Shown: positions 19,325 to 40,220, counted from the stretch's first letter. The stretch: DNA of 64,000 bases from Gemmatimonadota bacterium (GCA_046484665.1 JAWOIN010000180.1:333-64332); one strand, 5' to 3'. The notes: a model not told the origin generated them from the letters alone. Numbers and translations: made by a program.

Positions 19325-19391
19325 CTCTCGATCTCCGTGTGGTGTGCCTCGGTTCCGACCGGTAGGCGCAGACTATCGACCCGCCCGATAA

Positions 19392-19430
19392 TTGTCAAGG
19401 ATAAGTCCGTTAAAACCTTTTCAGTTGACA
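19392..19430. promoter_or_regulatory. AT-rich divergent promoter region with TTGTCAA/TTGACA inverted arms
   Basis: TTGTCAA at 19392-19398 and TTGACA at 19425-19430 flank an unusually AT-rich stretch between the nos operon and its divergent regulator. TTGACA-N17-GATCTT-N7-ATG(19461) would give a leaderless regulator mRNA. Confidence 0.35.
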
Positions 19431-19460
19431 GGAGGCCGGAATCGGTCGATCTTGCGTGCC

Positions 19461-20144: not shown

Positions 20145-20168
20145 CGGACGCGGGACCGGCCGCTATAT
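20141..20168 (+). promoter_or_regulatory. Putative sigma-70 promoter of tRNA-Arg
   Basis: TTAGCG (20141-20146), 16 nt spacer, TATATT (20163-20168), about 10 nt before tRNA base 1. Confidence 0.4.
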
Positions 20169-20178
20169 TGGGCGGTCC

Positions 20179-20252
20179 TGGCCCCGTAGCTCAGGAGGAT
20201 AGAGCGTCGGATTCCTAATCCGAAGGTCGCTGGTTCGAGTCCAGCCGGGGTC
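20179..20252 (+). tRNA. tRNA-Arg (anticodon CCT)
   Basis: A 74-nt cloverleaf folded by hand: acceptor GGCCCCG/CGGGGTC, D arm GCTC-AGGAGGATA-GAGC, anticodon arm TCGGA-TTCCTAA-TCCGA, T arm GCTGG-TTCGAGT-CCAGC, discriminator A. No encoded CCA. Confidence 0.9.
20210..20252 (+). repeat. attL-like copy of the 43-bp direct repeat (3' half of the tRNA)
   Basis: ATTCCTAATCCGAAGGTCGCTGGTTCGAGTCCAGCCGGGGTCA is identical to 24011..24053. Confidence 0.85.
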
Positions 20253-20259
20253 ATGTCCT

Positions 20260-20431
20260 GCGCGAAGCGCAGATTCTCGTCGAGCCGTGGCGCAGGGAGT
20301 ACAATACGATCCGGCCGCACAGTTCCCTGGACTGACTACAGGTCGCCCGCTCCGCAGGCGATTCGGCCCGTCCCGACCTGGCTCAGACGACCCGTGCTGC
20401 ACGGGCCGGAACATGCCGCCAGATTAGCATA
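20260..20431 (+). pseudogene. C-terminal remnant of an IS3-family (rve/DDE) transposase
   Basis: REAQILVEPWRREYNTIRPHSSLD then a stop. After a 4-nt slip (TGAC) it continues YRSPAPQAIRP, matching the conserved W..YN..RPHSSLGYR.PAP tail of IS3 OrfB. It begins only 8 nt after the tRNA. Confidence 0.6.
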
Positions 20432-20482
20432 ATTCGTGGTGCCACTCTTGGAGGCAGGTCACTCCCGCGTCCGGGGTCGAGC

Positions 20483-22051
20483 ATGTCCGGCATCTCCCAG
20501 TACTTCCACGGGGAAGAGGGCCTGGTGACCGAGCTGGCGTGGATGCCTGCCGGGGACCAGCTTGTGCTCCGCATGGGCCTGGCGGGCGACCCCCACCGCA
20601 CGGTGGCCATCGACTACGGCTCGGACATCGGCATCGATCCCCTCCTGCGCCCGGGGGGGAGAGCCATCTACCTGCGCGCCAACGCCTGGAGCGGCATCTG
20701 GACCGCGGGGGCCCACCGCTACCATCCCGAGACGGACGCGGCCATGGCGCGGGCCCTGGAGACCCGGAGCCGGATGGAGGAGTACGGGGGGCTGGTGGGG
20801 GAAGGAGGAGCCAACCTCCGGCGGTGGCTCCAGACTCTGGCCACGGACACGGGCCTCCCCTTGCGTCCGCTCCAGCCGGGCGACCGGGTGTCCGATACTC
20901 CCCTGGACGCCGCCGGGGTGTTCCTGAGCTACTCCAGCCAGAACGCCCTCCTGGCCCAGTGGCTCTACCGCCAGCTCCGCTCCGAGGGAAACGTGGGGGT
21001 CTGGTTCGACCAGGGGCACCCGGGGGAGCACCCCGGCCACGAGGAGGGGATCGCCGCATGGCTGCGCGCCTCGGTGCAGGAGTGCCAGATCCTGGCCCTC
21101 CTCCTCACCGGCCCTGCTCTGGACTCGCCCTGGGTGCGCCGGGAGATCGAGTACGCCGAGGAGAAGGCGGAGCGGGAGCCCGGCTTCCATTTCGTGGTCC
21201 TGAAGCTCGAGGATGTCCCGCTTCCCGCGCTGCGGGCACGGTCGCGGGTAGTGGACTGCGCCGGAATGAACGAGGGGGAGATTCTCGAGAACACCTACGC
21301 CGCGGTCTACCGCAGGGAGAGCCACCGGGAGTGGATGGCCGAGCAGGGCCGACGTGGGTGGCCCGGTCACGAGGAGCCCTCCGTCGGTTACGGGCACCTG
21401 GCGTCGGCAGGGGGCACGGCTCGGGCGCTTCGGTGGCGGCGGTCGGCAGGGGAGGTGGGCTGGGAGCTGGAGTACGAGAGCGCCGGGGCCACGAAGACGG
21501 TGCGGGGAACTGGACCGGGAGAGGCCGTGGATCCCGGAATCCGCCCCGGGGACCGGATTGGGTTCTTCCAGTTCGCCCTGCACACGCCCTTGTGGATGCG
21601 CTCGGACCAGCTCTCCCTCACTCCCCAGGAGGTGATGGCGGACTATCTCCGGGCGCTGGCCGCGCCGCCGGCATCCCCTCGCCTGCGCTCGCTTGTGGCT
21701 GGCAGCTACACTTTCTTCCTTTTCCTCACGGTGGCCCTGCTTGCCGCCAGGAACGACTTTGCGCCGGGGGTGCCGTGGTGGCTGATCGGGGCCTCGGCGC
21801 TGGCGCTGGTGGCGACCGGGAGCGTGTGGCTCGTCTCCCCCGAGTGGGGGCCCCGTTCTCCCCTGTGGAGGAGCGGTACGGGGCAGGCCATCGGCTGCCT
21901 GGCCACTCTGATCAACGGGGCGGCGGCCATGGCCGTGGTGGTGCGGGCGTTCGGCGGGTGGGACGCTCCCTGGACCCTGATCCTGGGGGTCTGGCTGGCG
22001 CTCCTGGCCGGGGCGCACCTCGCCACGGCCCGCATACGGGACGATAGCTGA
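20483..22051 (+). CDS. Multidomain TIR protein: unknown N-domain, TIR domain, unknown middle domain, four C-terminal TM helices
   Basis: TIR motifs GVFLSYSSQN (aa 145-154) and ILALLLTGPALDSPWVRREIEYA (aa 203-225), with the Glu of the S.W...E motif at codon 21143-21145. Hydrophobic helices lie at aa ~405-423, 430-451, 466-488 and 495-514. Confidence 0.8.
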   Translation: MSGISQYFHGEEGLVTELAWMPAGDQLVLRMGLAGDPHRTVAIDYGSDIGIDPLLRPGGRAIYLRANAWSGIWTAGAHRYHPETDAAMARALETRSRMEEYGGLVGEGGANLRRWLQTLATDTGLPLRPLQPGDRVSDTPLDAAGVFLSYSSQNALLAQWLYRQLRSEGNVGVWFDQGHPGEHPGHEEGIAAWLRASVQECQILALLLTGPALDSPWVRREIEYAEEKAEREPGFHFVVLKLEDVPLPALRARSRVVDCAGMNEGEILENTYAAVYRRESHREWMAEQGRRGWPGHEEPSVGYGHLASAGGTARALRWRRSAGEVGWELEYESAGATKTVRGTGPGEAVDPGIRPGDRIGFFQFALHTPLWMRSDQLSLTPQEVMADYLRALAAPPASPRLRSLVAGSYTFFLFLTVALLAARNDFAPGVPWWLIGASALALVATGSVWLVSPEWGPRSPLWRSGTGQAIGCLATLINGAAAMAVVVRAFGGWDAPWTLILGVWLALLAGAHLATARIRDDS

Positions 22052-22080
22052 GTAACCTGCGATCCCTCCGCCGTCCGGGT

Positions 22081-22114
22081 ACAGGGGACCGCCCTGGAGC
22101 GGGCTGGCCCCTGT
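22081..22114. terminator. Shared hairpin between the convergent island genes
   Basis: ACAGGGG-ACCGCCC...GGGCTGG-CCCCTGT imperfect stem within the 65-bp gap between the stops at 22051 and 22117. Confidence 0.5.
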
Positions 22115-22116
22115 CC

Positions 22117-23409
22117 TTACGCCTCGATCTCCTCCACGAAGGTCTTCACGGTGCCGAGGTGGCGGGTCATGGTGGGTCCGTCCATGGCGAGCCAGTGCAC
22201 CACGTACTCGTTCTCGCCGGTGATGAAGCGCACCAGGTACCCGTGGCTGATGCCCTGCTGGAAGTGGCACTCGTGGCACAGCGCCCCACCGCGGCGCAGC
22301 ATCTCCTGGCGGGTGATGGTGGCGCCCCGGGCGGCGAGGTTCTGCTCGGTAGCCGCCCGGAAGGTCGACTCGTCCGTGACGGTGGGCTCCGAGTACTGGA
22401 ACACCATGAAGTCCAGGCGCGAGCGCCGCCGGAAAATCCCTCCCAGCCCCGAGCCGCCGCTCTCGGGCGGCCTGAGGAGGGCCGCGAAGCTGGTGGGCTG
22501 CTCCGCGAGCACCCGACAGTGCCAGGCGGGCGGCGCGCGAAAGGAGAAGGGGGAGAGCCCGGGGCAGCTCGGCCGCGTTCGCGGGGAAAGCGGGATCTCC
22601 GCCGGCGGGCCCGGGGTCCCCGCAACCTGCGCGGAACCCCCTTGGGACCGCTCCCGGGCCAGGACCGCCGCAGGTCGCTCGGGCGAGGGCAGGGTCTCGC
22701 GTTCCAGCAGGAGGAAGCGGAGGAGGGCAAGGGCGGTGGAGGTGTCCGGTACCGTGGTGGCCGACCGGAGAGAGGGCTCCCCCGCCGCGCCCACCACGAC
22801 GGTCTTGAAGGCGTAGCCCGCCTCGGTCAGGTGGAGGATCTCCTCCTGGACGAACGGGGTGATCCGGCGGGTGTCCAGGACGATGAGCGCGACCGAGCGG
22901 GCGAACGACGACACCGCGTCCCGCCAATCCACCCCGCGGTCGATGCGGAAGCAGTCGCCGGGGATCTTCATATCGGTGGCGAGGATCCCCGTCTGGAGCA
23001 GGCTCACGGGGCGGAAGGGAAGCACTGCGTCGCGGATGGCGGCCTGGAGCGAGATCTGCTCCTCGCCCGAGCTCCCCAGGACCAGGATCGAGGCGGGGAC
23101 CCTCTCTCGGGTCCACTGGCCCAGGCCCGTCACGAGGAGGAAGAGTGCTGCCAGGGCCGGGATTGGCCCTGCATCTCCCGCCCACTGGGCTGCCAGCAGG
23201 GCCAGGCCACCTCCCAGCGCCACCCACTTGAGCCGCGCGAGGGTACGGATACGCCCGGAATACCGGCCCAGGGTCCGGGTGATGGCGAGGCACTCGCGGT
23301 AGCGGTCGGCTCCCAGGACGCGGCGCTGCCGCCGGACGCTCCAGGCGCTCCAACCCAGGAGGAAGACGGCCACGATGACAGCGATGACGGAAGCGACAAC
23401 TGCGATCAT
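22117..23409 (-). CDS. 3-TM membrane protein with a cytoplasmic alpha/beta domain and an unknown C-terminal domain (partner of the TIR protein)
   Basis: GGAGGA lies 4 nt before the ATG at 23409 (MIAVVASVIAVIVAVFLLGW). TM helices at aa 1-21, 61-76 and 83-98. Beta-alpha-beta pattern SILVLGSSGEE / VALIVLDTRRITPFVQEEILHL / KTVVVGA, then a Pro-rich linker and a C-terminal ~100 aa containing CHECH. The tracked N-terminal extension to 23793 is rejected. Confidence 0.65.
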   Translation of the reverse strand: MIAVVASVIAVIVAVFLLGWSAWSVRRQRRVLGADRYRECLAITRTLGRYSGRIRTLARLKWVALGGGLALLAAQWAGDAGPIPALAALFLLVTGLGQWTRERVPASILVLGSSGEEQISLQAAIRDAVLPFRPVSLLQTGILATDMKIPGDCFRIDRGVDWRDAVSSFARSVALIVLDTRRITPFVQEEILHLTEAGYAFKTVVVGAAGEPSLRSATTVPDTSTALALLRFLLLERETLPSPERPAAVLARERSQGGSAQVAGTPGPPAEIPLSPRTRPSCPGLSPFSFRAPPAWHCRVLAEQPTSFAALLRPPESGGSGLGGIFRRRSRLDFMVFQYSEPTVTDESTFRAATEQNLAARGATITRQEMLRRGGALCHECHFQQGISHGYLVRFITGENEYVVHWLAMDGPTMTRHLGTVKTFVEEIEA

Positions 23410-23789
23410 GGTTCCTCCGGGAGCCCGTCGGTGCCCGCGAGACCCTCCGGCTCCAAACGGGGGATCTCCGGAGGGGAGATGACCTGCTCCTTGACCCTCA
23501 CGTAACGTAAGGCTGCATCTTCGCATCGGCCATCGGGGGAGGGAGCCGCCACCCGGCGGCCTCCCCGCGACCGGGCAAGGAAAGGGGAGCAGGGGCATGA
23601 GCGGCATGACCTGACCCCCTGAAACGAGACCGCCTGCACAGTTAGGATTGCGGTCGGTGCGGTGCCCACCTCGTTCATGGATCAGCTTGGGGGGCACGAC
23701 AGGAATCCAGACCCTCAGCTTAGAGGCGGACCAAACCCGGGGGGAAACGTCACTAGAGGTCCGACTGCATATGCATCCGGCAGATGTTT

Positions 23790-23882
23790 TCAACGGATGA
23801 TCATGATCTTGCAGTGATGCAAATGTCGGTCGATCAGAGCGGCCACCATCACGTCGTCGCCCAGTCCGAGCATCACTTTGCC
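23790..23882 (-). pseudogene. C-terminal remnant of an IS21-family IstB-like ATPase
   Basis: GKVMLGLGDDVMVAALIDRHLHHCKIMIIR-stop resembles the conserved IstB tail (FGD.V.A.A.LDRL.HH......G). No upstream Walker motifs remain. Confidence 0.4.
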
Positions 23883-24010
23883 CGTACTTTGACTGAGATC
23901 AGAGAAGGGAGGGCACGCGAGAGAAGGAGACAGGTGCGGAAAGGGCCGGATCGGCCCTATCTTCCGCGACGTGAGAGAAGCCGGGTCACGCCGGAGAAGG
24001 CGGGCCTGGT

Positions 24011-24053
24011 ATTCCTAATCCGAAGGTCGCTGGTTCGAGTCCAGCCGGGGTCA
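24011..24053 (+). repeat. attR-like partial tRNA copy (43 bp)
   Basis: Identical to 20210..20252. It lacks the 5' half of the tRNA, so it is not a functional tRNA. Confidence 0.85.
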
Positions 24054-24097
24054 CTGTGGCGAACGCCACCGCTCCTCTCGATCCGAAAGGTCGGTAC

Positions 24098-24589
24098 ATG
24101 CGACTGGCTTTCCTCTGCGTCACGGTCGGAATGCTCACGCTCGCCGCGTGCGGGGACGACGATCCGACCGGGCCCGCGGCCCCGAACCTGGTCGGCGCCT
24201 ACGACGGGACGTGGACGGTGACGGTGGAAGGGCCGGGGCTCGAGACGACCACGCAGGTCTGCGCGGGCACGGTCATGGTCACCGACCAGTCGGGAGGGGT
24301 CTTCGAGGGCACCTTCTCCCAGTCCGCGAGCGAGGACTGCGAGGCCGGGAGCGGCTTCGTCACGGGCACCGTCGCGGCGGACGGCGCGGTCTCGCTGCTG
24401 CTCGGCGCGTCCGGGGGTGGCGGGCCCGCGTTCGAGGAATCGACGGGGTGCACACTCCTGTCGGCCGACGATCGGTATTCCGGCTCCTACGCGGAGGGGG
24501 CGCTGTCGTTCGAGACCAGCCTGACCGCGCAGTGCCCGGAGTCCGGGAGCGTCACCGTGGTCTGGACGTTCGCCTTCGCCGGATCGTAG
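24098..24589 (+). CDS. Lipoprotein of unknown function
   Basis: ATG at 24098 gives MRLAFLCVTVGMLTLAAC, a lipobox. Its last ~56 codons are duplicated as a decayed copy at 31124..31327. Confidence 0.7.
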   Translation: MRLAFLCVTVGMLTLAACGDDDPTGPAAPNLVGAYDGTWTVTVEGPGLETTTQVCAGTVMVTDQSGGVFEGTFSQSASEDCEAGSGFVTGTVAADGAVSLLLGASGGGGPAFEESTGCTLLSADDRYSGSYAEGALSFETSLTAQCPESGSVTVVWTFAFAGS

Positions 24590-24622
24590 GCGACATCGCG
24601 ACCGGACGGGAGCCCGGGTGTC
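24419..24622 (+). repeat. Left copy of a ~204-bp direct repeat (3' end of the lipoprotein gene plus 33 bp)
   Basis: Aligns without indels to 31124..31327 with about 17 mismatches, counted by eye. Confidence 0.8.
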
Positions 24623-24652
24623 CCGGAGCCAGGCCGGCGGCACTCCTGCCCA

Positions 24653-25361
24653 TCACGCCGTCTGCTCACCCATGGACATGGTATCACGGGCCGGATCGAT
24701 GGCACGGCAGCGTGCACGCGCGGTGACGTCCCTCGCGTCTTCGATCCCGGCGGTGGCGTGCATGTGCGCGTGCTGCCTGGCCCGCACGATGCGCCAGCCG
24801 GTCGCGCCGAGGATAAGCGACGCGGCGATCCCGACGGCGATGTTCGCGAAGTGCCCGACCCACGCGACGATCCCGGCCACTTCCGCCGAGAACAGGTAGC
24901 CGGCCGCCGCGTAGAAGCCCGCCCAGGCCAGGAGGGCCACGCCGTCCACGAGCACGAACGCGCGGGCGCGGATGCCCGCCAGGCCGCTGGCCGCCGCGAT
25001 GAGGTTCCCCGTTCCGGGCAGGAACTTCGAGGGAAGCACGTACAGCGGGCCGACCCGGCGAACCCTCGCGGTCACCCGGACGACGCAGGCACCGGGATTC
25101 GACGTCAGGTTGCAGGCCGTGTCCACGAGACCGGGACCACGCCACCGCGTGAGCCCGTACCAGGTCAGGTCGGCGGCCAGCCCTCCGCGCGGCCGCGCTG
25201 AGCACGACGAGGGGCAGGGAGAGATCGCCCGTGGCGACGGCGGCGCCCGCGAGGACCAGGACCGGAACGCTGGCCACCGGAAGCCTGATGAATTCGATGA
25301 ACCCGAGCAGCACCAGCAGCGGATATCCCCAGCCGTGCAGCAGGTCTCCGATGGCCCCCAT
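24653..25361 (-). pseudogene. DedA/VTT-family membrane protein interrupted by a frameshift
   Basis: The N-terminal part (MGAIGDLLHGWGYPLLVLLGFIEFIRLPVASVPVLVLAGAAVATGDLSLPLVVLSAA) is in the frame of ORF 24684..25361. The remainder (GGLAADLTWYGL...YVLPSKFLPGTGNLIAAASGLAG...) is in the frame of ORF 24653..25126. The frame switch is near 25190-25200. Confidence 0.65.
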
Positions 25362-25689
25362 GATCCCCTCCCCTCGTCGTCCCGATGGCCAGCCCTCCAG
25401 CGAGCTTCACCCGGGAGAACCGGGAAGGGGCTCCGTTCGTGCCCGACGGCGCATCGGCGGACCCGCGCCGCCGGTTTCGCCGGGCGCGGGCCCGCGGCCG
25501 TGAGGCTGCCCGGACGTTCACGTCCCCGGCCGCTCCTTCCTGCATTGTCGCCGGATCGGGGATCGCGCAGGTTTCCGATCGTCGGGAGGTCGGAAGATTC
25601 CGCTGCGGGAACCTCGGCGGCCGCGGATCCGGTTTCGTCGACGGAAGAACGCCCGCAGGAGACGTCATGAGGTCATCGCACGGAAGGGT

Positions 25690-26403
25690 GTGGTGAGTCG
25701 CACGGAGCTCTGGGCCCAGGTCCGCATGGCGTGGTCCGTGCTCTCGGGCCAGGTCGCCCACGAGGTGCATCCGGGCCGCGAGCGGATCGAAGTCGCGCCG
25801 GCCCCGGACCTCGGTCCGGAGGCGGGAGGCGCGATCGCGGCCGAAGGGTTCGCCGAGGAGGCGCTTCCCTGGCTCGACGCCGTTCACGCGTTCACGCTCC
25901 GTCTCACGGGCGGCGACCGCGACGCGGCCGAGGACCTCGTGCAGGACACGTTCGTCCGGGCGCTCAGGTTCTGGCACACGTTCGAGCGGGGCACGCACGT
26001 GCGGTCCTGGCTGTTCACGATCTGTCGGAACACGTTCCTTCACGGGCGGGACAGCGCCCGATCGCGGAGGGAGAAGCCGTTGGCGGACATGGACCCGAGG
26101 GCCGAGGCGCTGGTCGGCATCCGGTCGCTGGGGCGGCCCGCGCCCGATCCGGAGGAGGAGTTCTTCTCCCGCCTCATTCACGACGAAGTCGTGGACGCGA
26201 TCGACGCGCTGCCCCCGGATTTCCGGGACGTACTCGTCCTCAGCGACCTGGGCGACCTCAACTACGCCGAGATCGCGACCGTCCTGGAGATCCCGGTGGG
26301 CACCGTGAAGAGCCGCCTGTTTCGCGCGCGGAGACAACTTCAGGAGCGGCTGCGGGAGTTCGCCGTTCGCGAGGGGTACGCAGACGTGCCGGAGGAAGCA
26401 TGA
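25690..26403 (+). CDS. ECF sigma factor (SigR-like)
   Basis: Region 2 (EDLVQDTFVRALRFWHTF, RSWLFTICRN) and region 4 (LNYAEIATVLEIPVGTVKSRLFRARRQL) motifs. Its stop overlaps the anti-sigma ATG. The start is uncertain (25690 GTG or 25726 ATG). Confidence 0.85.
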   Translation: MVSRTELWAQVRMAWSVLSGQVAHEVHPGRERIEVAPAPDLGPEAGGAIAAEGFAEEALPWLDAVHAFTLRLTGGDRDAAEDLVQDTFVRALRFWHTFERGTHVRSWLFTICRNTFLHGRDSARSRREKPLADMDPRAEALVGIRSLGRPAPDPEEEFFSRLIHDEVVDAIDALPPDFRDVLVLSDLGDLNYAEIATVLEIPVGTVKSRLFRARRQLQERLREFAVREGYADVPEEA

Positions 26404-26675
26404 TCCGAAGAGCGATGGGAATGATCTCCTGCGACGAGGCGATGCGCCGTCTCTGGGAGTTCCTCGACGCGGAGCTCGGTCCCGAGGAGGAGGCCGAGGT
26501 GCAGCGGCATCTCGAGGTCTGCGAGAAGTGCTATCCGCAGTACGACTTCCAGCGGGCGTACTTCAGGTTCATGCATCGGGTCGCGGAAGGGGAGCGCGCG
26601 ACGCCCGCGTTTCGCCGTCGCCTGTTCCGCAGGCTGCTCGAGGCGCAATCGGCGGAGGAGGACCGGAATGAGTGA
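26400..26675 (+). CDS. Cytoplasmic zinc-binding (ZAS, RsrA-like) anti-sigma factor
   Basis: 91 aa, no TM helix. Cys near the N-terminus (MISCDEA) plus the H-x3-C-x2-C motif (HLEVCEKC). ATGA overlap with the sigma gene. Confidence 0.8.
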   Translation: MIRRAMGMISCDEAMRRLWEFLDAELGPEEEAEVQRHLEVCEKCYPQYDFQRAYFRFMHRVAEGERATPAFRRRLFRRLLEAQSAEEDRNE

Positions 26676-26749
26676 TGGCGGGCCGCCGGACCGGGGCCGA
26701 GGTCGACCCCCGGCTCGGAGACTGACTCCTGCACCCGGGACGTGACGGA

Positions 26750-27712
26750 TCACGCGGACCGCGTCGCCGGGCGGGCGAGCGCGACGGCGAACAGGCCGTC
26801 GGCGTCGGTGTCCCACCTGTCCAGACGGAATTCGCCGTCCTCGAGCAGGCGCGTGGCCGACTCGCGCGTGAACTTGTGGCTCAGCTCGGTGCAGATGGAC
26901 TCCCCGGGGGCAAACGTAAGGCGCATGTCCAGCGCGGGAAGGTGAATCGTCTGGGTCCTGGTGGAGACCAGATGCATCTCGATGCGGGAATCCGCTTCGT
27001 TCCACACGGCCCGGTGAGCGAACGCCTCGGGATCGAAGTCGGAGCCCAGGTGGCGGTTGAGGACGAGCAGTGCGTTTCTGTTGAACGCCGCCGTGACGCC
27101 CCGGGCGTCGTCGTAGGCCGCCACGAGGCGTCGCCGGTCCTTCATGAGGTCGAATCCGACGAGGAACGCGTCCGCGGGCGCGAGACGCTCCCGGACGTCT
27201 CTCACGAAGGACGCGGCGGCGGCCGGGGCGAGGTTCCCGATCGTGCTCCCCAGGAACAGGACGAGCCGCGGCCCTCCGTCGGCTCGCAGGGCGAGGTCGT
27301 CGTGGAAGTCGGCCACGACGCCGTCCACCTCGAGGTCCGGGTAGAGTCCGGAGAGGCGCTCCGTGGCACCTCGAACCGCCTCCGGGCTCACGTCGACGGC
27401 TCGATACCGGCGCAGGCACCCCTGCCGCACCCCCTCGTCGAGAAGGATCTCCGTCTTCCCGGAGCTCCCGGATCCGAACTCGATCAGCGCCGCGGGTCGG
27501 ACCGAATCGATGAGCAGCGCGGCCGCGCGCTCGAGAATCGACCGTTCCGTCCGGGTCAGGTAGTACTCGGGCAGGCTCGTGATCTCCTCGAACAGCCGCG
27601 ACCCCCGGGCGTCGTAGAAGTACTTGGGCGGCAGGGTGCGCGGCGGCCGTCCCAGGCCCTCCCTGACATCGGTCGCGATGGAGCGACGCAGCGGGCCGGG
27701 GTCCGCGCTCAT
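26750..27712 (-). CDS. egtD: L-histidine N-alpha-methyltransferase (EgtD/EanA family)
   Basis: PPKYFYDARGSRLFEEITSLPEYYLTRTE, IEFGSGSSGKT and FLGSTIGN motifs typical of EgtD. ATG at 27712 overlaps the upstream stop (ATGA). Confidence 0.85.
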   Translation of the reverse strand: MSADPGPLRRSIATDVREGLGRPPRTLPPKYFYDARGSRLFEEITSLPEYYLTRTERSILERAAALLIDSVRPAALIEFGSGSSGKTEILLDEGVRQGCLRRYRAVDVSPEAVRGATERLSGLYPDLEVDGVVADFHDDLALRADGGPRLVLFLGSTIGNLAPAAAASFVRDVRERLAPADAFLVGFDLMKDRRRLVAAYDDARGVTAAFNRNALLVLNRHLGSDFDPEAFAHRAVWNEADSRIEMHLVSTRTQTIHLPALDMRLTFAPGESICTELSHKFTRESATRLLEDGEFRLDRWDTDADGLFAVALARPATRSA

Positions 27713-28455
27713 CGGTACTCCGGGTTCGGATAGTCGAACCGGCAGCCGGCGTCCCACTCCGAGCGCTGGTTGCCGTGCGCCGGGATCCCGCCCCGGTCCC
27801 TCAGCATCCGGGCGAGGTGCAGGAGGTTCCAGGTCATGAACGTGGTGTTGCGGTTCGTGAAGTCGTTCTCCGGCCCCCCCGACCCCGGGTCCAGGTACGA
27901 GGGCCCGGGCCCCGCCTCTCCGATCCAGCCCGCGTCGGCCTGTGGCGGGACCACGTAGCCGAGGTGCTGGAGCGAGTAGAGAATGTTCATCGCGCAGTGC
28001 TTGATCCCGTCCTCGTTCCCGGTGACGAGGCAGCCCCCGACGCGGCCGTAGTAGGCGTACTGGCCCCGCTCGTTCAGGATGCCGGAGCTGCCGTACAGGC
28101 GCTCGATCACCTGCGTGCACACCGAGGACTTCTCTCCGAGCCAGATCGGCGTGCCGAGCACGAGGATGTCGGCCGCCATCACCTTCTCCTGGATCTCCGG
28201 CCAGTCGTCGCGCTCCCAGCCGTGCTCGGTCATGTCCGGATACACGCCGTGCGCGATCCGGAAGTCGACGGGACGCAGCAGCTCCACGGAGACGCCGTTC
28301 CGCTCGAGGATCGCCCGGGAGATGACCATCAGGCCCTCGGTGTGCGAGAGCGTCGGGCTCGGTTTCAGCGTGCAGTTGAGGAACAGGGCGCGCAGGTCCG
28401 AGAAGTCCCATTCGTGGCGCTCGCAGTCGGCGAGCTGGCGGTCGCTCAGCGGCAT
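27709..28455 (-). CDS. Flavodoxin-fold NAD(P)H-dependent FMN reductase-like protein
   Basis: GAGGAG RBS and ATG at 28455. LFLNCTLKPSP...ADILVLGTPIWLGEKSS pattern of the NADPH-dependent FMN reductase family. Translationally coupled to the egtD-like gene. Confidence 0.65.
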   Translation of the reverse strand: MPLSDRQLADCERHEWDFSDLRALFLNCTLKPSPTLSHTEGLMVISRAILERNGVSVELLRPVDFRIAHGVYPDMTEHGWERDDWPEIQEKVMAADILVLGTPIWLGEKSSVCTQVIERLYGSSGILNERGQYAYYGRVGGCLVTGNEDGIKHCAMNILYSLQHLGYVVPPQADAGWIGEAGPGPSYLDPGSGGPENDFTNRNTTFMTWNLLHLARMLRDRGGIPAHGNQRSEWDAGCRFDYPNPEYR

Positions 28456-28717
28456 CGGTTCGCTCCTCTCGGGCGGTGAAAGTAGTTGCCCGGCCGTGTT
28501 CGTGCGTCCGCACGACGGGTCTGCGCGAGGACTCGTCCGGCAAGTCCGCACGCCCGCTCCCTCCTCAAACACCGGCCGTGGTCGGATCGGTTCCCCCGTA
28601 CGCCGAGGGACCCACGGAAACCCCCCGTCGCCATCGCGCCGGGTCGCCCGCCGGCCTACGTTTGGCTCCCGCATTCCGTCTCTTGAACATACTCGCGAGC
28701 CCCGGAAGGATCTCACC

Positions 28718-30019
28718 TTGAGAAACAGGCCGGACAGTCTTTCCACCACGGAGCTGCTCGCGCTTCTCGACGCTCCCGGCGCGCAGATCGTGGACGTCCG
28801 TCCCATCGACGCCTACAACGGATGGCGGCTGCAGGGGGAGAGCCGGGGAGGGCACATCCGCGGGGCGAGGACGCTGCCCTTCAAGTGGAGCGCCTACCTC
28901 GACTGGATCGAGATCGTCCGTGCCAAGGAGATCCGGCCGGAGCACGACCTCGTCCTGTACGGCTACGATCCGGAGGAGACGGCACGCGTCGCGGACAGGT
29001 TCCGGCGGGCGGGCTACACCCGCATCGCGGCCTATCACGACTTCGTGACGGAGTGGTGCACGGACGAGGCCCTGCCCATGGATCGCCTGGCGCGGCACGA
29101 GCACCTGGTGCCCGCCTCGTGGCTCGCGGAACGGCTCCCGGGGACGGATGCTCCGGACGCCGTCGGCGACGGTTTCGTCCTCTGCCACGCGCACTACCGG
29201 AACCGGGACGACTACCTGAAGGGGCACGTTCCCGGCGCCCTGGACCTCGACACCCTCCTTCTCGAATCCCCGGAGACCTGGAACCGCCGGGCTCCCGAGG
29301 AGGTGCACCGCGCGCTGCTCGGGCTGGGAATCACCTCGGACACGACGGTCGTGCTGTACGGCAGATACTCCTTCCCCGACAACCGCGACCCTTTTCCGGG
29401 GAGCAGCGCCGGCCAGCTGGCGGCGTTCCGCTGCGCCTTCATCATGCTCTGGGCCGGCGTGAAGGACGTCCGCGTCCTCAACGGGGGCTTCCAGTCCTGG
29501 ATGGACGCGGGTCTCGAAGTCTCGACGGACGAAGGCGAGGCACGGCCGGCGGCGGAGTTCGGGTCCCCGATCCCGGGGGCCCCCGAGCTCGCCGTGGACC
29601 TGCCCGAGGCGAGGGAGATCCTCGTCGCGCCGGACGGAAACCTCGTGAGCGTGCGCAGCTGGCCGGAGTACGTCGGCGAGGTGAGCGGTTACAACTACAT
29701 CGAGAAACGGGGCCGGATCCCCGGCTCCGTGTTCGGGAGCTGCGGAAGCGACGCCTACCACATGGAGAACTACCGCAACCTCGACCACACGACACGGGAG
29801 TACCACGAGATCGAGGCGTCGTGGCGGAGCGCCGGGATCACGCCCGCCAGGCGGAACGCCTTTTACTGCGGCACCGGGTGGCGGGGGAGCGAGGCCTTCT
29901 TCAACGCGTGGCTGATGGGCTGGCCCCGCGTCGCCGTGTTCGACGGTGGATGGTACGAGTGGAGCGCCGACGACGCGAATCCCATCGAGACCGGCGTCCC
30001 GGTCGGGCGGGTCCGGTGA
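28718..30019 (+). CDS. Multi-rhodanese sulfurtransferase, EanB-like (hercynine sulfurtransferase candidate)
   Basis: GGAAGGA lies 7 nt before the TTG at 28718; there is no in-frame ATG upstream. Several rhodanese-like segments, with the catalytic loop FYCGTGWRGSE near the C-terminus. 433 aa. Divergent from the egtD-like operon. Confidence 0.7.
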   Translation: MRNRPDSLSTTELLALLDAPGAQIVDVRPIDAYNGWRLQGESRGGHIRGARTLPFKWSAYLDWIEIVRAKEIRPEHDLVLYGYDPEETARVADRFRRAGYTRIAAYHDFVTEWCTDEALPMDRLARHEHLVPASWLAERLPGTDAPDAVGDGFVLCHAHYRNRDDYLKGHVPGALDLDTLLLESPETWNRRAPEEVHRALLGLGITSDTTVVLYGRYSFPDNRDPFPGSSAGQLAAFRCAFIMLWAGVKDVRVLNGGFQSWMDAGLEVSTDEGEARPAAEFGSPIPGAPELAVDLPEAREILVAPDGNLVSVRSWPEYVGEVSGYNYIEKRGRIPGSVFGSCGSDAYHMENYRNLDHTTREYHEIEASWRSAGITPARRNAFYCGTGWRGSEAFFNAWLMGWPRVAVFDGGWYEWSADDANPIETGVPVGRVR

Positions 30020-30471
30020 CGGGCACCCCGGCCGGCGACCGGTCCCGGTCCGTCGAGGCGGCAGGGGACGCGATCATCGCCGAGATGGCGGGTCTCGACG
30101 ACCTGATGGCGAAGTACGAGTACCTCGTCGGGCTGGGGAGGGAGCTGCGCGTCCCGGATGCGGCGATCCGCCGCGACGAGCACTCGGTCGCGGGATGCCA
30201 GTCCCGCGTCTGGATCCGCACGGAGCTCCGCGACGGTCGGCTTCACATCGTGGCCGACAGCGACGCGATGATCACCCGGGGGATCATCGCGCTCATCCTG
30301 CGGCTGCTGGACGCCCGCACGCCGGCCGAGATCCTCGCGGCCGACCTCAGGGTCTTCGACGCCGCGGGGTTGCAGACGCATCTCTCGCCGGCCCGCGCCA
30401 ACGGGCTCGCCGCCATGGTCCGACGGATCCGCCAGGAGGCGGAGAAGGCGGCGAGCCCGGGAGAACCGTAG
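30016..30471 (+). CDS. sufE: SufE-like sulfur acceptor/donor protein
   Basis: KYEYLVGLG...SVAGCQSRVWI motif with the conserved Cys. GTG at 30016 overlaps the rhodanese TGA (GTGA). Confidence 0.8.
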   Translation: MTGTPAGDRSRSVEAAGDAIIAEMAGLDDLMAKYEYLVGLGRELRVPDAAIRRDEHSVAGCQSRVWIRTELRDGRLHIVADSDAMITRGIIALILRLLDARTPAEILAADLRVFDAAGLQTHLSPARANGLAAMVRRIRQEAEKAASPGEP

Positions 30472-30574
30472 CCGCCGTCGAGCGGCAGGAGTCTGAGAGC
30501 GATGGCGTGGACGGCGAGATCCGCCCGATCGGCATGCCCCGGATGAAGCGATCGACCGGGCGGATCCCCCGAGC

Positions 30575-31021
30575 TCAGCCAGCCGTCGCGGCCGCCGCTC
30601 CCGACTCGACGTGCGTCGGGACCGCCCCGTAGACCTGCCCGACGACGACTCCGTACACAAGGTGTCCGATCAGGCTCCCCATCGCCATGACCGCGGAGCC
30701 GGAGAAGACCGGCATTCCCATCATCGGAATCACGAGGAGCTGCGCCATCAGGAACGGCGCGATCGCGTAGAGTGCTCCCCGCAGGGCCGGGGCGCCGGGA
30801 AGCCGCGGCGCGAGCACGGCGTAGCCGACGGCCAGGATCACGCCGATCATGAAGTGCGCCATCCAGCCCAGCACGAGGCTGCCGCCCATCGCGCCGGCCA
30901 GCATCTGCGCCGGGTTCATCGGCGGAATGCCCATCAGGGGCGCCATCCAGAGTCCCACGGCGGTCATCACGGCGGTGCCGATGATGCCCGCGGCCACGGC
31001 GCGTCCGGTCCGTACGTTCAT
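30575..31021 (-). CDS. Four-TM Met/Gly-rich membrane protein, unknown family
   Basis: 148 aa, hydrophobic throughout (GIIGTAVMTAVGLWMAPLMG, FMIGVILAVGYAVLAP, APFLMAQLLVIPMMGM, MGSLIGHLVYGVVVG). Confidence 0.6.
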   Translation of the reverse strand: MNVRTGRAVAAGIIGTAVMTAVGLWMAPLMGIPPMNPAQMLAGAMGGSLVLGWMAHFMIGVILAVGYAVLAPRLPGAPALRGALYAIAPFLMAQLLVIPMMGMPVFSGSAVMAMGSLIGHLVYGVVVGQVYGAVPTHVESGAAAATAG

Positions 31022-31123
31022 GTCTTCCTCCTTCGAGTGGACTCTTCAGGCGAATCCGGTTCCGTGCGTCCGTCGAGGACGCGTTCCGGAGACCGAACCG
31101 GGAGGGTCGCCGGCAGGTTCCGC

Positions 31124-31327
31124 GGCGGGCCCGCGTTCGGGGAAGCGACGGGGTGAACGCTCCTATCGGCCGACGACCGGTATACCGGCTCCTACGCGGA
31201 GGGGGAGCTGTCGTTCGACACCAGCCTGACCGCGCAGTGTCCGGAGTCCGGGAGCGTCACCGTGATCCGGACGTTCGCCTTCGCCGGCTCGCAGGCGACA
31301 TCGCGACCGGGCGGGAGCCCGGGCGTC
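31124..31327 (+). pseudogene. Decayed duplicate of the 3' end of the lipoprotein gene (right copy of the 204-bp repeat)
   Basis: About 92% identical to 24419..24622. TGC has become TGA (a premature stop) and the original TAG has become CAG. No 5' part of the gene is present. Confidence 0.75.
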
Positions 31328-31800
31328 ACTCTCGACCACCCGCCCGGGCTGAACGTCCGAGGCTGCTCGCGCAGCTGACGGCGAATCCGGCCCGGGCCGC
31401 CCCTCTTCGTATGGTCGGCTACTTGGTCGGACGTTTCTTCGATGCGGGCTTCGTGGACTTCGTCTTACCCGGAGCGGGCGGACGGGGTCTCGGCGGCGGC
31501 TGGCCCCTCTTGATCCAGCCGGGCTGACGCGGGGGGCGCTTCTCACCGGGTGGCATGATCAGCCGCCGTTCCGATCGTGGCTCCCAGCGCAACCGGCACA
31601 GACGCCGGCCGCTCGCAAGCACGCGAACACGTTACGACCCACCTGGAATCGACTCCGGTCATGGAGTGACCGACCTTCGCCCGTCAGAACGGCGGATCGA
31701 ATATCGCAGAGGTGCGAACCGGGCCGACCCCCTCTGCGCTTCTACGCCGTCCCGTCCCGACGTCCTTTCCGCTCGATCTTCCGCCCGCGATATTACGACA

Positions 31801-33627
31801 ATGTCCGACGGGACGCCTGCTTCGAGCCGCTTTTTCGCCGAACTGAGACGCCGCCGCGTGCCTCGCGTCATCGCGATGTACGGCGCGGCCGCGTTCGCCG
31901 TCATCGAGGCCGCGGACGCCGTTTTCCCCCGCCTGGCGCTGCCCGACTGGTCGGTGACGCTCGTCGTGGCCCTCGCCCTGCTCGGCCTCCCGGTCGTGGT
32001 CGTGCTCGCCTGGGCGTTCGAGATGACGCCGGAGGGGATGCGGCGGACGGCCGAAGCTTCGCCGGGCGAGCTGACGGAGATGCTCGCCGCCCCGGCGCAC
32101 AAGCAGTGGGCATCCGGTCTGCTGGCGCTCGCTGGCCTGATGGCGTTGCTCGCCGGAGCGTGGTTCGTGGGCCGCCAGTCGGCGCCCGCGGAAGACACCG
32201 AACGGGTGGAGAAGGGTCCCGTCGCGGCTTCTGTGGCGGTGCTGCCGTTCGTCAACATGAGCTCCGACGACGAGCAGGAGTACTTTTCCGACGGGATTTC
32301 CGAGGAGCTCCTCAACCTGCTGGCGAAGATCCCGGAGCTTCGGGTCGCGTCGCGGACTTCCGCGTTCTCCTTCAAGAACCAGAACCTCGAGATCCCGGAG
32401 ATCGCCCGGCGCCTCGACGTGGCACACGTGCTCGAGGGCTCGGTGCGGAAGGCGGGCGATGAGGTGCGGATCACGGCACAGCTCATCGACGGGCGCTCGG
32501 ACACGCACCTCTGGTCGGCCACGTGGGACCGGACGCTGGAGGACATCTTCGCCGTGCAGGACGAGATCGCGGCGGAGGTGGCGGCGCAGCTCAAGGTGAC
32601 TCTGCTCGGCGAGCCACCGCACGTGGAGGAGACGGACCCTGAGGCGTACGCCCTGTTCCTGCAGGCCCGCCAGCTCGGACGACAGGGCACGGCCGCGGGG
32701 TTCGAACGGTCGAACGAGCTGCTGCGACAGGCGCTCGCGATCGACTCCGCGTATGCACCGGCGTGGAGCGAGCTGGCCGCGAACCTATTCGTGCAGGCGG
32801 GCGTCATGTCCGGAGGACAGCAGCCGTTCGACGCGAGAGTCCGGCCGGCCAGGGACGCGGCGGAGCGGGCGCTCGCGATCGATCCCCGCTACGCGCCCGC
32901 CCACGCCACGCTCAGTCGGATCGCCAACGCGTTCGAGGGAGATCTCGCGGAGGCGGCCCGGCGGATGGAGCGCGCGCTCGAGCTCGCACCGACCGATTCC
33001 GACATTCTCAGCGGCGCAGCGATCCTGGCCTCGGACCTGGGACGGCTGGACGAGTCGATCGCACTCCAGGGGCGCGCGGTCGCGCTCGACCGGGTGAATC
33101 CCCGCAGCTACCTCAACCGGGGGCTCCTCTATCAGAGTGCCGGCCGTTGGGACGAGGCGATCTCCCAGTTCCGGACCGCCCTCGACCTGGCCCCGAGCAG
33201 CGTAGCCGCCCACCACAGCATCGGGCGGGCGTTGCTCGGCAAGGGCGAGTTCGAGGCGGCGCTCGCGGCCAACGAGCGGGAGCCGGACGAGGGATGGAGG
33301 CTGCTCGGGCGCGTGGCGGCATATCACGACCTGGGCCGGGCGGCGGACTCGGACGCCGCGCTCCGGGAGCTGATCGCGAAGTACGGGCAGGAAATGGCCT
33401 ACAACATCGCCGGCGTGCTGGCGTACCGGGGCGAGGCGGACCGCGCCTTCGAGTGGCTGGGCAAGGCCGTGGAGTACGGCGACCCGGGCCTGTCCGAGAT
33501 CCCCCTGGATAGGCAGTGGTTTTCCAACCTGACCGACGAGCCACGCTGGATCCCGTTCCTCGAGAGCATCGGAAAGTCGCCTGGTCAGCTCGCCGCGATC
33601 CAGTTCGAGGTCCGGCTCCCGGAGTAG
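31801..33627 (+). CDS. TM-anchored TolB-N-like plus TPR-repeat protein (paralog 1)
   Basis: N-terminus FFAELRRRRVPRVIAMYGAAAFAVIEA, a second TM helix, VAVLPFVNMSSDDEQEYFSDGISEELLNLLAKI module, then TPR repeats and C-terminal WIPFLESIGKSP. Confidence 0.8.
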   Translation: MSDGTPASSRFFAELRRRRVPRVIAMYGAAAFAVIEAADAVFPRLALPDWSVTLVVALALLGLPVVVVLAWAFEMTPEGMRRTAEASPGELTEMLAAPAHKQWASGLLALAGLMALLAGAWFVGRQSAPAEDTERVEKGPVAASVAVLPFVNMSSDDEQEYFSDGISEELLNLLAKIPELRVASRTSAFSFKNQNLEIPEIARRLDVAHVLEGSVRKAGDEVRITAQLIDGRSDTHLWSATWDRTLEDIFAVQDEIAAEVAAQLKVTLLGEPPHVEETDPEAYALFLQARQLGRQGTAAGFERSNELLRQALAIDSAYAPAWSELAANLFVQAGVMSGGQQPFDARVRPARDAAERALAIDPRYAPAHATLSRIANAFEGDLAEAARRMERALELAPTDSDILSGAAILASDLGRLDESIALQGRAVALDRVNPRSYLNRGLLYQSAGRWDEAISQFRTALDLAPSSVAAHHSIGRALLGKGEFEAALAANEREPDEGWRLLGRVAAYHDLGRAADSDAALRELIAKYGQEMAYNIAGVLAYRGEADRAFEWLGKAVEYGDPGLSEIPLDRQWFSNLTDEPRWIPFLESIGKSPGQLAAIQFEVRLPE

Positions 33628-33853
33628 GCGTCGTCCGAGTCAGTCCCCCGCGACGAGCAGAACGCCGCTTGGAATCCCGTGGCGACCCGGGTCCCGGCGC
33701 GATCAGCCATCGTGATCGGGTCCGGAGTTCCCGGCCCGTCGGTTGAAATCTGGCGCGGAGAGTGAAACCGATCCCGGGTTCACGCGGCTACACTTCCCAC
33801 GTTGCAGAGGTGAGGTGTGTCGACGGCATGGCCCACCGGAAGGCGGCAGGCGG

Positions 33854-35143
33854 TCAGGTCGGCCGCGGGTCTCCCGCCGCTGCACGTCGGAGGTCGCGCG
33901 CACGGCCCTCCACGGGACGCTCGAACGCACCCGAGGTCCCCGTGACCCAGCGCTCGATGTGTCGGACCGCCAGATCCGCGCCCCGCTCCCCCCGCACGAG
34001 CGCCCCGATCTCGCGCGCTCGCGTCGCGAACGCGTCCGTGGAGAGGAGGTCGTCGATCCCGCGGGCGATCCGATCGGGCGTGGCCTTCTGGAACGGGATC
34101 GGACCCGGTCCCATTCCGCGATCCCGGATTCGCCTGCCCCAGTAGGCGTGCGAGGGGAAGATCGAGATGACCAGTGCGGGGAGGCCGGCGCGCGCGAGGG
34201 CGTGGATGGTTCCCGCGCCGCCGTGCGCTACTACGGCGCGAACGTGCGGCAGGACGGCCGCGTGCCTCGTGTCCCTGTCCATCAGGAACAGTTCTTCGGG
34301 GATCGCGTCCGGCGGGAAGGACGGGTCGCACCAGGACGTCACGACCCTAGCGCCCGACTTCAGGAGGCTCTCGAGCACGCGGCGCATGATCTGCGTCCAC
34401 ACGTCGTTCCGAAAGCTCCCTGGCTCGACGAACACCGGCGCCGGCCCGGCATCCAGGAACTCCCGCAGATCACGCGGCATCTCGGGGTCCGATCCCTCGT
34501 CGAGATACCAGTACCCTGTGACCTGCACCCGCGAGGGCCAGTCGGCGGGACGGGGCAGGAGCTGAGGGCTCGCGCTGATCAGGACGGGAACGCGCTCGCG
34601 GCGCATCCGGGGGTGCGGTCCCCACACGGGAAGGGGGGGAAGCCCGAGGACCTCCGCGCGGGCTCGGTTCACGCTGCGAGCCACCGGAATCCAGTGCGAC
34701 AGCTTCTCGATCGCGTGCGTGAGCCTGTTGTGAGCCCGTCCCAGCGTGCGCGGGGCCCGGGCATAGACGCTCGGGAACTCGCCCGTCATGACTTCGGGCT
34801 CGAACAGCATCCGGATCGGGAGGATCCCCAGCCGCTCCGCGACGTCGTATCCGAAGAACGCGAGGTTGTTGTAGACGATCGCGTCGGCACCCCGGCAGAG
34901 CTCGAGGGCCGTCCGCATCCGAATCCGGAGGAGCTCGGCCGGGTTCTTCTCCAGCTCCCGTTGCTCCGCCGTGAACCCGCCCGGCATGATCGCGAACGGG
35001 ACGCCGGCCGAGGCCACCAGCCCCTCCGACCCCTCGTGCGCGGCGAGAACGGTCTCGTGTCCCGCCCGGGCGAGGGAGGCCGCGAGCGCCGCGTTGGGCT
35101 GTACGTCGCCCCGGCTCCCGACCGTGAGGATCGCGATCCGCAT
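33854..35143 (-). CDS. GT1-family (UDP-glycosyltransferase, GT28 N-terminal type) glycosyltransferase
   Basis: MRIAILTVGSRGDVQPNAALAASLARAGHE N-terminus and C-terminal VVAHGGAGTIHALARAGLPALVI donor-binding motif. GGAAGGA RBS before the ATG at 35143. Confidence 0.8.
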   Translation of the reverse strand: MRIAILTVGSRGDVQPNAALAASLARAGHETVLAAHEGSEGLVASAGVPFAIMPGGFTAEQRELEKNPAELLRIRMRTALELCRGADAIVYNNLAFFGYDVAERLGILPIRMLFEPEVMTGEFPSVYARAPRTLGRAHNRLTHAIEKLSHWIPVARSVNRARAEVLGLPPLPVWGPHPRMRRERVPVLISASPQLLPRPADWPSRVQVTGYWYLDEGSDPEMPRDLREFLDAGPAPVFVEPGSFRNDVWTQIMRRVLESLLKSGARVVTSWCDPSFPPDAIPEELFLMDRDTRHAAVLPHVRAVVAHGGAGTIHALARAGLPALVISIFPSHAYWGRRIRDRGMGPGPIPFQKATPDRIARGIDDLLSTDAFATRAREIGALVRGERGADLAVRHIERWVTGTSGAFERPVEGRARDLRRAAAGDPRPT

Positions 35144-35407
35144 GGTGTCCTTCCGCGTGCCGTCACCGGACATTCCGACCCCGGGAACGCAGGTACCGTG
35201 CCCGCCGGCTGCGAGACCCGCATCGGCCCGCGCCCGGGGCCTCGACGCGCGTCATGTGCGGCGATCCGATAACTCCGGCACATCCCGTCACCTCGGTCCG
35301 GTCGACCCTGTCCGCGCCGGCTCGACCGCTCACGCCGTGCGCCTGCACCTCGGCGGGCGCGAGACAGGATCGAGTCCCGGCCGGGTGTTGCGCCCGCACC
35401 GCACCCC

Positions 35408-36271: not shown

Positions 36272-36350
36272 GGGCGCCCGGCCCCGCGGGAGCCGCGTCC
36301 CGGGACGCGGACGGCGGACACCGGCGAGGCGGACACCGACGACGCCCGTC

Positions 36351-36698: not shown

Positions 36699-36883
36699 CG
36701 GTCCGTCTCCCGGTTCGGGTCACGTGATGGGCGTCCCGGCGGCACGATCTCCCCGGGACGCCGATGCGCACGGGAGACGATGCGGCACGCGCGTCCGCAC
36801 GGCGAGCCCGGCCGGCGGCGCTCGACTCCTGCCGGCGTCGCGCCCACTTCCCGAACCGCCATTCGGGCACGATCTTGTCCGCC

Positions 36884-38704: not shown

Positions 38705-38722
38705 GACCCGTCTCCGTTCCGG

Positions 38723-40069: not shown

Positions 40070-40185
40070 GCCGCCCGCCCTGGAACTACGGTGAGCCCGA
40101 CGTGGGGATCGGCCATTCTACGCCCGTGCCGGAGAGGGGCACAATCGACCCCGGAGGCGAGCTCGCCCCCCGAGGGAGGCGGCCC

Positions 40186-40214: not shown

Positions 40215-40220
40215 GATCAC

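Follow-up and report, generated by a model that had tools for sequence, protein, structure and literature searches.

A decaying second copy of a lipoprotein gene end beyond a probably resident ECF-sigma gene cluster behind tRNA-Arg in a Gemmatimonadota genome

The stretch of DNA analysed here, referred to as the window, comprises 64,000 nt of contig C2 of a metagenome-assembled genome (MAG; 189-contig assembly) of an uncultured Gemmatimonadota bacterium. Behind a tRNA-Arg gene it carries an intact lipoprotein gene and, 6.7 kb downstream of that gene, a second copy of its last third, so that the two copies of the gene end bracket a block of 6.5 kb. A preliminary description of the same sequence had taken this bracket for the footprint of an integrated element that brought its own copy of the 3' end of its target gene, with the block as the cargo of a second island accreted next to a tRNA-associated islet. 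The analysis presented below favours, at a rough probability of 0.62, the reading that the right copy is the relic of an ancestral second copy derived from the lineage's own gene, and that the block is a resident regulon cluster and not a fresh island. The features that delimit the locus are:

20179-20254, plus strand: tRNA-Arg(CCT) gene, the anchor of the variable region (ARAGORN)
20255-24053, no strand assigned: tRNA islet (TIR protein, 558-aa protein) with a displaced tRNA 3' fragment, 24004-24053, at its end (repeat D3; 43-nt exact match)
24098-24589, plus strand: intact lipoprotein gene, 163 aa (translation)
24419-24622, plus strand: left repeat copy, codons 108-163 plus 33 nt of 3' flank (alignment, repeat finder, exact count)
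31124-31327, plus strand: right copy, a 5'-truncated lipoprotein pseudogene fragment plus 33 nt of the gene's 3' flank (alignment, reading in the lipoprotein frame)

Translation of the lipoprotein gene yields a product with a signal peptide and the lipobox LTLAAC, for which a Pfam scan matched no family. Its homologues (n = 46) are confined to one Gemmatimonadota group, and the nearest of these, at 93% amino acid identity, lies on L037, a 20.6-kb contig from an independent assembly of a different Joint Genome Institute (JGI) sample. The tRNA gene was called with ARAGORN, families of open reading frames (ORFs) were assigned by Pfam scans, and the repeat was defined by MAFFT alignment, a repeat finder and an exact mismatch count. 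The formal alignment bears out the gapless repeat of about 204 bp that had been described, with 16 mismatches on exact count in place of the estimated 17 or so (92.2% identity over 204 nt). It is the top direct-repeat family of the region (D1), and the similarity is cut off sharply at both edges; an origin by chance or low complexity is ruled out by the length of 204 nt, the 92% identity and these sharp edges. The presence of the 3' end of a target gene at both ends of a block is a feature of integrative elements that target gene 3' ends.

In the frame of the lipoprotein gene the right copy reads ...GGPAFGEATG*TLLSADDRY...FAFAGSQ..., in which TGA replaces Cys118 and CAG replaces the TAG stop, and it has no start codon. 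Comparisons of the ratio of non-synonymous to synonymous substitution rates (dN/dS) cover the last 171 coding nt of the gene. Over this stretch the intact genes of the window and L037 differ at 9 synonymous and 3 non-synonymous positions (dN/dS 0.12), and the intact gene is under purifying selection; the left and right copies of the window differ at 5 synonymous and 9 non-synonymous positions (dN/dS 0.65), a ratio that reflects relaxed constraint on the right copy. On account of the premature TGA, the missing start and a dN/dS of 0.65 versus 0.12, the right copy is a decaying gene end, and its earlier description as displaced and decaying, with an early TGA and a lost TAG, is confirmed by the frame reading and the substitution pattern. 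A functional gene overlying the right copy was considered and rejected: the ORFs at 31153-31527 (plus strand), 31163-31546 (minus strand) and 30849-31229 (plus strand) have no Pfam match and are not in the lipoprotein frame.

Between the two copies lie genes for an extracytoplasmic function (ECF) sigma factor and its zinc-binding anti-sigma (ZAS) partner, sulfur and redox functions, and a membrane protein:

24653-25361, minus strand: DedA/VTT-family gene, frameshifted by +1 near 25188 (C-terminal ORF matches Pfam VTT_dom)
25608-25634, plus strand: promoter motif before the sigma gene, suggestive of autoregulation (pattern scan)
25690-26403, plus strand: ECF sigma factor (Pfam Sigma70_r2 and r4_2)
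26400-26675, plus strand: ZAS-type anti-sigma factor, 91 aa, HxxxCxxC (Pfam zf-HC2)
26750-27712, minus strand: EgtD/EanA-like histidine N-alpha-methyltransferase (Pfam Methyltransf_33, 3e-104; PDB 4UY7 EgtD, 8e-80)
27709-28455, minus strand: FMN reductase-like flavoprotein (Pfam FMN_red; start codon and ribosome-binding site located)
28568-28594, minus strand: promoter motif before the FMN reductase-EgtD operon (pattern scan)
about 28718-30019, plus strand: EanB-type sulfurtransferase, probable TTG start (PDB 6KTV/6H98, E = 4e-186 over 422 aa)
30016-30471, plus strand: SufE-like sulfur acceptor (Pfam SufE, 6e-38; GTGA overlap with eanB)
30575-31021, minus strand: DUF6789 membrane protein (Pfam)
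31096-31121, minus strand: promoter motif before the DUF6789 gene (pattern scan; -35 element separated by 2 nt from the right copy)

The Pfam and PDB matches agree with the contents that had been read from the sequence before (a frameshifted DedA, a SigR/RsrA-like pair, an ergothioneine module and a membrane protein). In an alignment with the intact 226-aa ORF of another genome (G001:C42) the DedA gene has one extra base near 25188. The sigma and anti-sigma genes overlap by ATGA, and the EanB-type gene is predicted to belong to oxygen-independent ergothioneine synthesis.

The evidence that bears most directly on the age and edges of the repeat comes from L037, which is 91-96% identical to the window at the DNA level, the genomes differing by 4-9%. 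Its layout is tRNA-Arg, lipoprotein gene, sigma/anti-sigma pair, DUF6789 gene, a lipoprotein remnant, and then the same right flank from the EamA gene onward. The sigma/anti-sigma pair (96%) and the DUF6789 gene (95%) are kept in order and orientation in the L037 DNA, and at the protein level the sigma factor and the DUF6789 protein are 97% and 91% identical to their L037 orthologues. The L037 remnant, at about 6605-6794, follows directly on the upstream flank of the DUF6789 gene and is located between this promoter flank and the EamA flank, that is, at the orthologous position; past a short common flank (window 31469-31556 matches L037 6874-6961 at 81%), L037 runs into EamA and onward, matching window 35407-40891 at 91%. 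Since the bracket is shared with L037, the second copy is older than the split between the two genomes. The block interior differs: the EanA, EanB and SufE genes (26700-30613) are found in the window, and a CMD-family gene with a remnant of the FMN reductase gene is found in L037, on which a DNA comparison detected no counterpart of the EgtD/EanA-like gene.

The edges of the repeat are not the same in the two carriers. Both genomes have the DUF6789 upstream flank ...GGGAGGGTCGYCGGMAGGTTCCGCGGCG, which is conserved in L037 up to ...GGTTCCGCGGCG; in L037 it is followed by about 40 nt of unassignable sequence, by weak similarity to the lipoprotein gene from about codon 75, and then by a clear copy of window 24349-24421, ending ...TCCGGGGGCGG, that is joined directly to CTGTCGTTCGAC... 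(window 24496 onward, to 24591). The L037 remnant thus extends about 95 nt further 5' than that of the window and has lost about 80 nt internally, between two GGGGGYG words. In the window, the GCGGCG of the flank runs straight into GGCCCGCG, and this edge matches the outcome of a deletion between the flank's GCGGCG and the gene's GTGGCG (24416-24421), so that in both genomes the remnant edges lie at short G-rich microhomologies. As the L037 remnant differs both at its 5' edge and internally, the edge at 24419/31124 marks a microhomology deletion specific to the window lineage and not a recombination crossover. Judged by the sequences preserved in the two genomes, the ancestral second copy spanned at least about codon 75 to 33 nt past the stop.

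Counted over shared columns, the identity of the window remnant is 92% with its own left copy, 90% with the left copy of L037 and 72-79% with the genes of six other species. The two remnants share the derived states GAC for GAG and ATC for GTC/GTG, and in a maximum-likelihood (ML) tree of the window and L037 copies with the genes of these six species they are sisters (support 80/72), with all four copies forming a clade (98/95). On the basis of these identities and the tree a foreign origin of the right copy is ruled out, and the second copy was therefore made from the lineage's own gene, before or near the split. By a rough clock (dS of about 0.20 between the left copies), about 23 left-right differences per 171 coding nt are expected if the copy predates the split, and the left-right divergence within L037 is at the expected level. 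The lower value in the window, given below, points to a duplication near the time of the split, or else to a degree of gene conversion in the lineage of the window, and the divergence level argues against a diverged foreign donor.

The block itself is conserved well beyond these two genomes. The genes for sigma factor, anti-sigma factor, FMN reductase (86-94% amino acid identity) and DUF6789 are found in other genera (L102, L110) with order and orientation unchanged; the FMN reductase gene adjoins DUF6789 in L102, L110 and L107 (86-94% amino acid identity), and sigma/anti-sigma and DUF6789 are immediate neighbours in L111, L115, L063 and L072. No lipoprotein gene is present near the sigma clusters of L102, L110, L111, L115, L063 and L072, and no lipoprotein sequence was found at 48 metagenome loci around DUF6789 relatives or at 30 genome loci around sigma relatives. 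Moreover, a SigR-like motif, GGAACC-N15-(T/C)CCGGTT or ...GTGTT, occurs three times in the block, on the correct strand and 56-113 nt upstream of a start codon. A loose form of this pattern has 7 matches in the 64 kb versus 3.5 expected; the extended motif precedes the sigma and DUF6789 orthologues in L037, L102, L110 and L111, as well as the CMD gene in L037 (positions 3375-3401, 4982-5007 and 6538-6563 in L037; 9939-9964 and 13667-13692 in L102). The conserved order across genera and the shared promoter motif together identify the block as one ECF-sigma regulon cluster.

From these motifs, the cluster is a candidate thiol/redox-stress regulon that would include oxygen-independent ergothioneine synthesis. 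It resembles the SigR-RsrA regulon of actinomycetes in the combination of an ECF sigma factor with an HxxxCxxC ZAS anti-sigma factor, and in the promoter of the GGAA(C/T)-N18-GTT type before the sigma gene and neighbouring redox/thiol genes. It differs in belonging to another phylum and in its putative targets, which, as judged from the motifs, are EanA/EanB ergothioneine synthesis, FMN reductase, SufE and DUF6789. The cluster is thereby a by-product of the analysis that can be put to the test: an ECF sigma/ZAS pair with a conserved motif before ergothioneine genes, FMN reductase and DUF6789.

Composition and gene content provide a further means to judge whether the block is mobile. Its guanine-plus-cytosine (GC) content is 0.701 versus a window mean of 0.707, and by tetranucleotide distance 24623-31123 ranks at the 34th percentile among windows of equal size within the 64-kb stretch, as compared to the 100th percentile for the tRNA islet, which is bounded by tRNA-Arg and the displaced tRNA 3' fragment and is the most deviant stretch of the window. 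The composition of the block is thus native and does not deviate from that of the host. Pfam scans of the main ORFs detected no recombinase in the block, and a six-frame scan of the whole MAG for PF00589 found no tyrosine recombinase on C2 and matches only on C121, C31 and C74 (serine recombinases and transposases were not scanned genome-wide), in line with the earlier statement that the block holds no recombinase. Within 24.6-31.6 kb there is no tRNA-Arg fragment and no element of the T-loop-insert type described below.

These data alter the preliminary interpretation. An element integrated with the 3' end of its target is contradicted by the differing edges of the L037 remnant and by the GCGGCG/GTGGCG deletion that accounts for the left edge; the reading of the block as a second island with cargo is contradicted by its 34th-percentile, native composition and by a backbone conserved across genera; and a lipoprotein gene with the TPR gene immediately after it, the arrangement that the preliminary description proposed to look for, occurs in no relative, the TPR/glycosyltransferase segment being itself missing from L037. 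The proposal of two back-to-back insertions downstream of tRNA-Arg stands in part. The L037 match blocks (window 18851-20253 matching L037 559-1967, and window 24011-24605 matching L037 1925-2519) establish that L037 lacks the 3.8-kb tRNA islet and has the lipoprotein gene 44 nt after the tRNA; the islet is a separate, younger event, and the event behind the bracket, which L037 shares, is older. The other part does not hold, in that the block cannot be recognised as a mobile element, and recent integration of such an element does not account for the bracketed DNA.

In the favoured reading, a second copy of the tRNA-Arg-adjacent lipoprotein gene would already have been present in the common ancestor with L037 and would since have been eroded in the two lineages separately, through deletions between short G-rich microhomologies. 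In the window lineage the deletion would have run from GCGGCG to GTGGCG, halting 2 nt short of the DUF6789 promoter's -35 element, with point mutations accumulating afterwards; the proximity of this element may explain why erosion of the remnant stopped where it did. Two routes to the founding event are tenable, both somewhat short of even odds: a local segmental duplication, by tandem duplication followed by deletion or by unequal exchange between sister chromosomes, and a recombinational insertion of conspecific or sibling-strain DNA with its own lipoprotein copy at the tRNA-Arg/lipoprotein hotspot. Several points weigh against the own-lineage relic. The window derives from a MAG; the bracket was found in one close relative only, so that the ancestral state rests on two genomes; a full-length second copy was found in no relative of the lineage, nor an empty site in the 61 related genomes, 46 protein clusters and 11 locus contexts covered, which leaves the founding event unobserved; the remnant tree is built on 85-167 nt only, with moderate internal supports (72-82); and the window has 14 left-right differences in 171 coding nt against the about 23 expected for a neutral pre-split copy. 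Finally, another species of the genus (L042/G004:C256) carries an independent pair of lipoprotein copies, 79.6% identical, around a different block.

This last case leads to an alternative, rather doubtful here but the most serious of those considered, in which tandem accretion took place at tRNA-Arg: an integrase-less element or import (tRNA 3' half, lipoprotein gene, sigma block) would have entered upstream of the resident lipoprotein gene, by a trans-acting integrase at the tRNA or a Campbell-type homologous crossover, after which the redundant right, resident copy lost its 5' part and its tRNA fragment. In L042/G004 the order is tRNA, MscS, a tRNA fragment with lipoprotein codons 1-107 fused to a truncated AstE, RimK-RimB-CorA, and a tRNA fragment with the full lipoprotein gene; the 5' copy is cut at codon ~107, the full copy lies 4.3 kb downstream, and a tRNA-Arg 3' half stands before each. 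This layout, the same architecture around another block, is best read as the import of a foreign segment with its own lipoprotein copy, so such events do occur at the locus. Accretion is also favoured by the DNA past the lipoprotein gene, which varies in all species examined, by the three T-arm variants of tRNA-Arg shuffled between genes and fragments, by a tRNA-like fragment 50 nt past the lipoprotein gene in L037, and by the shared 33-nt tail followed by different flanks, which fits two lipoprotein genes from different contexts. Neither a tRNA fragment nor a conserved cassette end is found by the right copy or within 24.6-31.6 kb, however, the composition is native and the contig has no integrase; moreover, the right copies nest in their own clade and have diverged about as expected had they been identical near the split, so that any donor was nearly conspecific. 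The locus does resemble accretion of the type known from cis-mobilizable elements (CIMEs), in that it lies directly behind a tRNA-Arg gene that demonstrably collects integrase-less islets within the genus, and in the sister species with two lipoprotein copies, a tRNA half before each, around another block; it differs in that the window block is not bounded by tRNA fragments, the repeat is protein-coding, and the cargo is native and conserved across genera.

Phage 21 and e14 integrate into the 3' end of icd in Escherichia coli and leave a displaced icd 3' fragment. The window is similar to this system in having an intact gene at one end and the displaced, diverged last ~55 codons at the other, and a 3'-end repeat with 33 nt of flank that brackets 6.5 kb, intact gene left and broken end right, is what would be left by a site-specific element that entered the lipoprotein 3' end with a replacement end, the 204-bp repeat representing attL/attR and the integrase having been lost later. 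Such an origin is nevertheless improbable: the L037 remnant edge lies ~95 nt further 5' with ~80 nt of internal loss, the window edge is that of a GCGGCG microhomology deletion, neither the Pfam scans of block ORFs nor, on this contig, the PF00589 scan found an integrase or excisionase, no relative has an empty site, and the cargo, of native composition, is a cross-genus regulon cluster. Unlike the icd case, no phage or mobile genes were found here and the repeat edge is unconserved. Still further from being credible is an assembly artefact, a chimeric contig into which the assembler joined a strain variant of the lipoprotein end as the right copy. Short diverged repeats can mislead assemblers, and the MAG is in 189 contigs, but the independent L037 assembly has the remnant at the same place with the same flanks; the right copy has pseudogene lesions, its unique flanks on both sides are conserved in L037, and a chimeric join would not give a 5'-truncated fragment inside collinear sequence.

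The closest parallels to the own-lineage relic are pseudogenes left in bacterial genomes by partial or segmental gene duplications. Like these, the right copy is truncated and startless, has a premature stop, a lost stop and a relaxed dN/dS, clusters with its own lineage's gene, and has an orthologous relic that erodes independently, through microhomology deletions, in a sister genome; it is unlike them in that a functional regulon cluster separates it from its parent, 6.7 kb away, and the two are not in tandem. The locus is an unremarkable leftover of genome turnover at a hotspot that is well documented, and it carries a caution: a gene-end repeat around several kb mimics the footprint of an island, and a single close relative can expose secondary deletion edges and a resident regulon. 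Within 15 kb behind tRNA-Arg, turnover has left a young islet of foreign composition, an old lipoprotein duplicate, differences in interior genes, and a 3.8-kb segment that is missing in L037.

The lipoprotein gene is the first conserved gene after tRNA-Arg(CCT), or after its displaced 3' fragment, in every relative examined. The DNA downstream of it differs in every species examined: AstE-RimK-RimB-CorA-MscS follows in L040 and L047, SDR and peptidase S15 genes in L049, and still others in L045 and L046. The sole close relative, L037, however, shares the bracket and the backbone. Even these two close genomes have nothing in common from the lipoprotein gene to the sigma promoter, with window 24606-25518 (the frameshifted DedA gene) and L037 2520-3285 (a tRNA-like fragment and a 53-aa membrane ORF) having no homology; cassette-like replacement therefore also happens directly downstream of the lipoprotein gene. 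EamA orthologues occur within the genus only in G008, which has no lipoprotein gene, and on the side that faces the remnant in the window, EamA is flanked by other genes in G008 and in two metagenome contexts.

The G-run ATCCGGGGGYGGCGGGCCC (lipoprotein gene 24408-24426; L042 10313-10330; L036, which is G004:C256, 4655-4675) is a point where junctions coincide: at three loci in three genomes, four junction forms fall within ~15 nt, namely the window remnant edge, the L037 internal deletion and the lipoprotein::AstE fusions in L042 and G004. The lipoprotein::AstE junction lies between two ATCCGGG words in G004 and 9 nt away, at GCGGC, in L042. This coincidence is read as the effect of a deletion-prone G-rich microhomology. 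It is unlikely, as a more far-reaching proposal would have it, that the tRNA-Arg 3' half and the lipoprotein gene form a docking platform at which integrase-less blocks are swapped between strains, with ATCCGGGGGYGGCGGGCCC as the preferred site of a trans-acting enzyme. Across species, synonymous sites in the 36 nt that flank the G-run show unusual conservation.

The displaced tRNA-Arg 3' halves that stand before lipoprotein copies carry a T-loop insertion of ~46 nt with a small hairpin (GGTT|GTTTTCACGCCTCGCGTGCTCAATG...GACGGC|GAGTCC), found at 4230-4316 and 8935-9027 in L036, at 9883-9968 and 14594-14680 in L042, and at 9883-9964 in L046. A truncated relative of this element lies at L037 2553-2600, 50 nt downstream of the lipoprotein gene. 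Within the genus, intact tRNA genes and fragments carry the T-arm variants GCTGG, GCGCG and ACAGG in shuffled distribution, a pattern that serial integrations would be expected to leave. G008 is the nearest species-level genome without the lipoprotein gene and has another occupant of the tRNA-Arg hotspot: L132 (G008:C32) contains, at 424-1880, tRNA-Arg, four AACCTTGCAATC-like repeats, an ATPase-like ORF and an insertion sequence (IS)-type transposase at the contig end.

To the right of the remnant, window ~31585-35407 is a 3.8-kb segment that encodes a TPR protein of 690 aa and, on the minus strand at 33854-35173, a GT28-like glycosyltransferase. In this genus the TPR protein is one of a very large set of paralogues, among them the 646-aa product of the TPR gene at 36764-38704. 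This whole segment is absent from L037, where the flank with a small ORF abuts EamA directly. The corresponding feature of the window, read from the region and lying in the flank common to L037, is:

31419-31556, minus strand: possible small Pro/Arg/Lys-rich ORF, 45 aa, in the right flank of the remnant

It reads MPPGEKRPPRQPGWIKRG..., and its N-terminal part is kept in L037 (MSPGEKRPPRQPGWIQRG...), although it may not be a gene.

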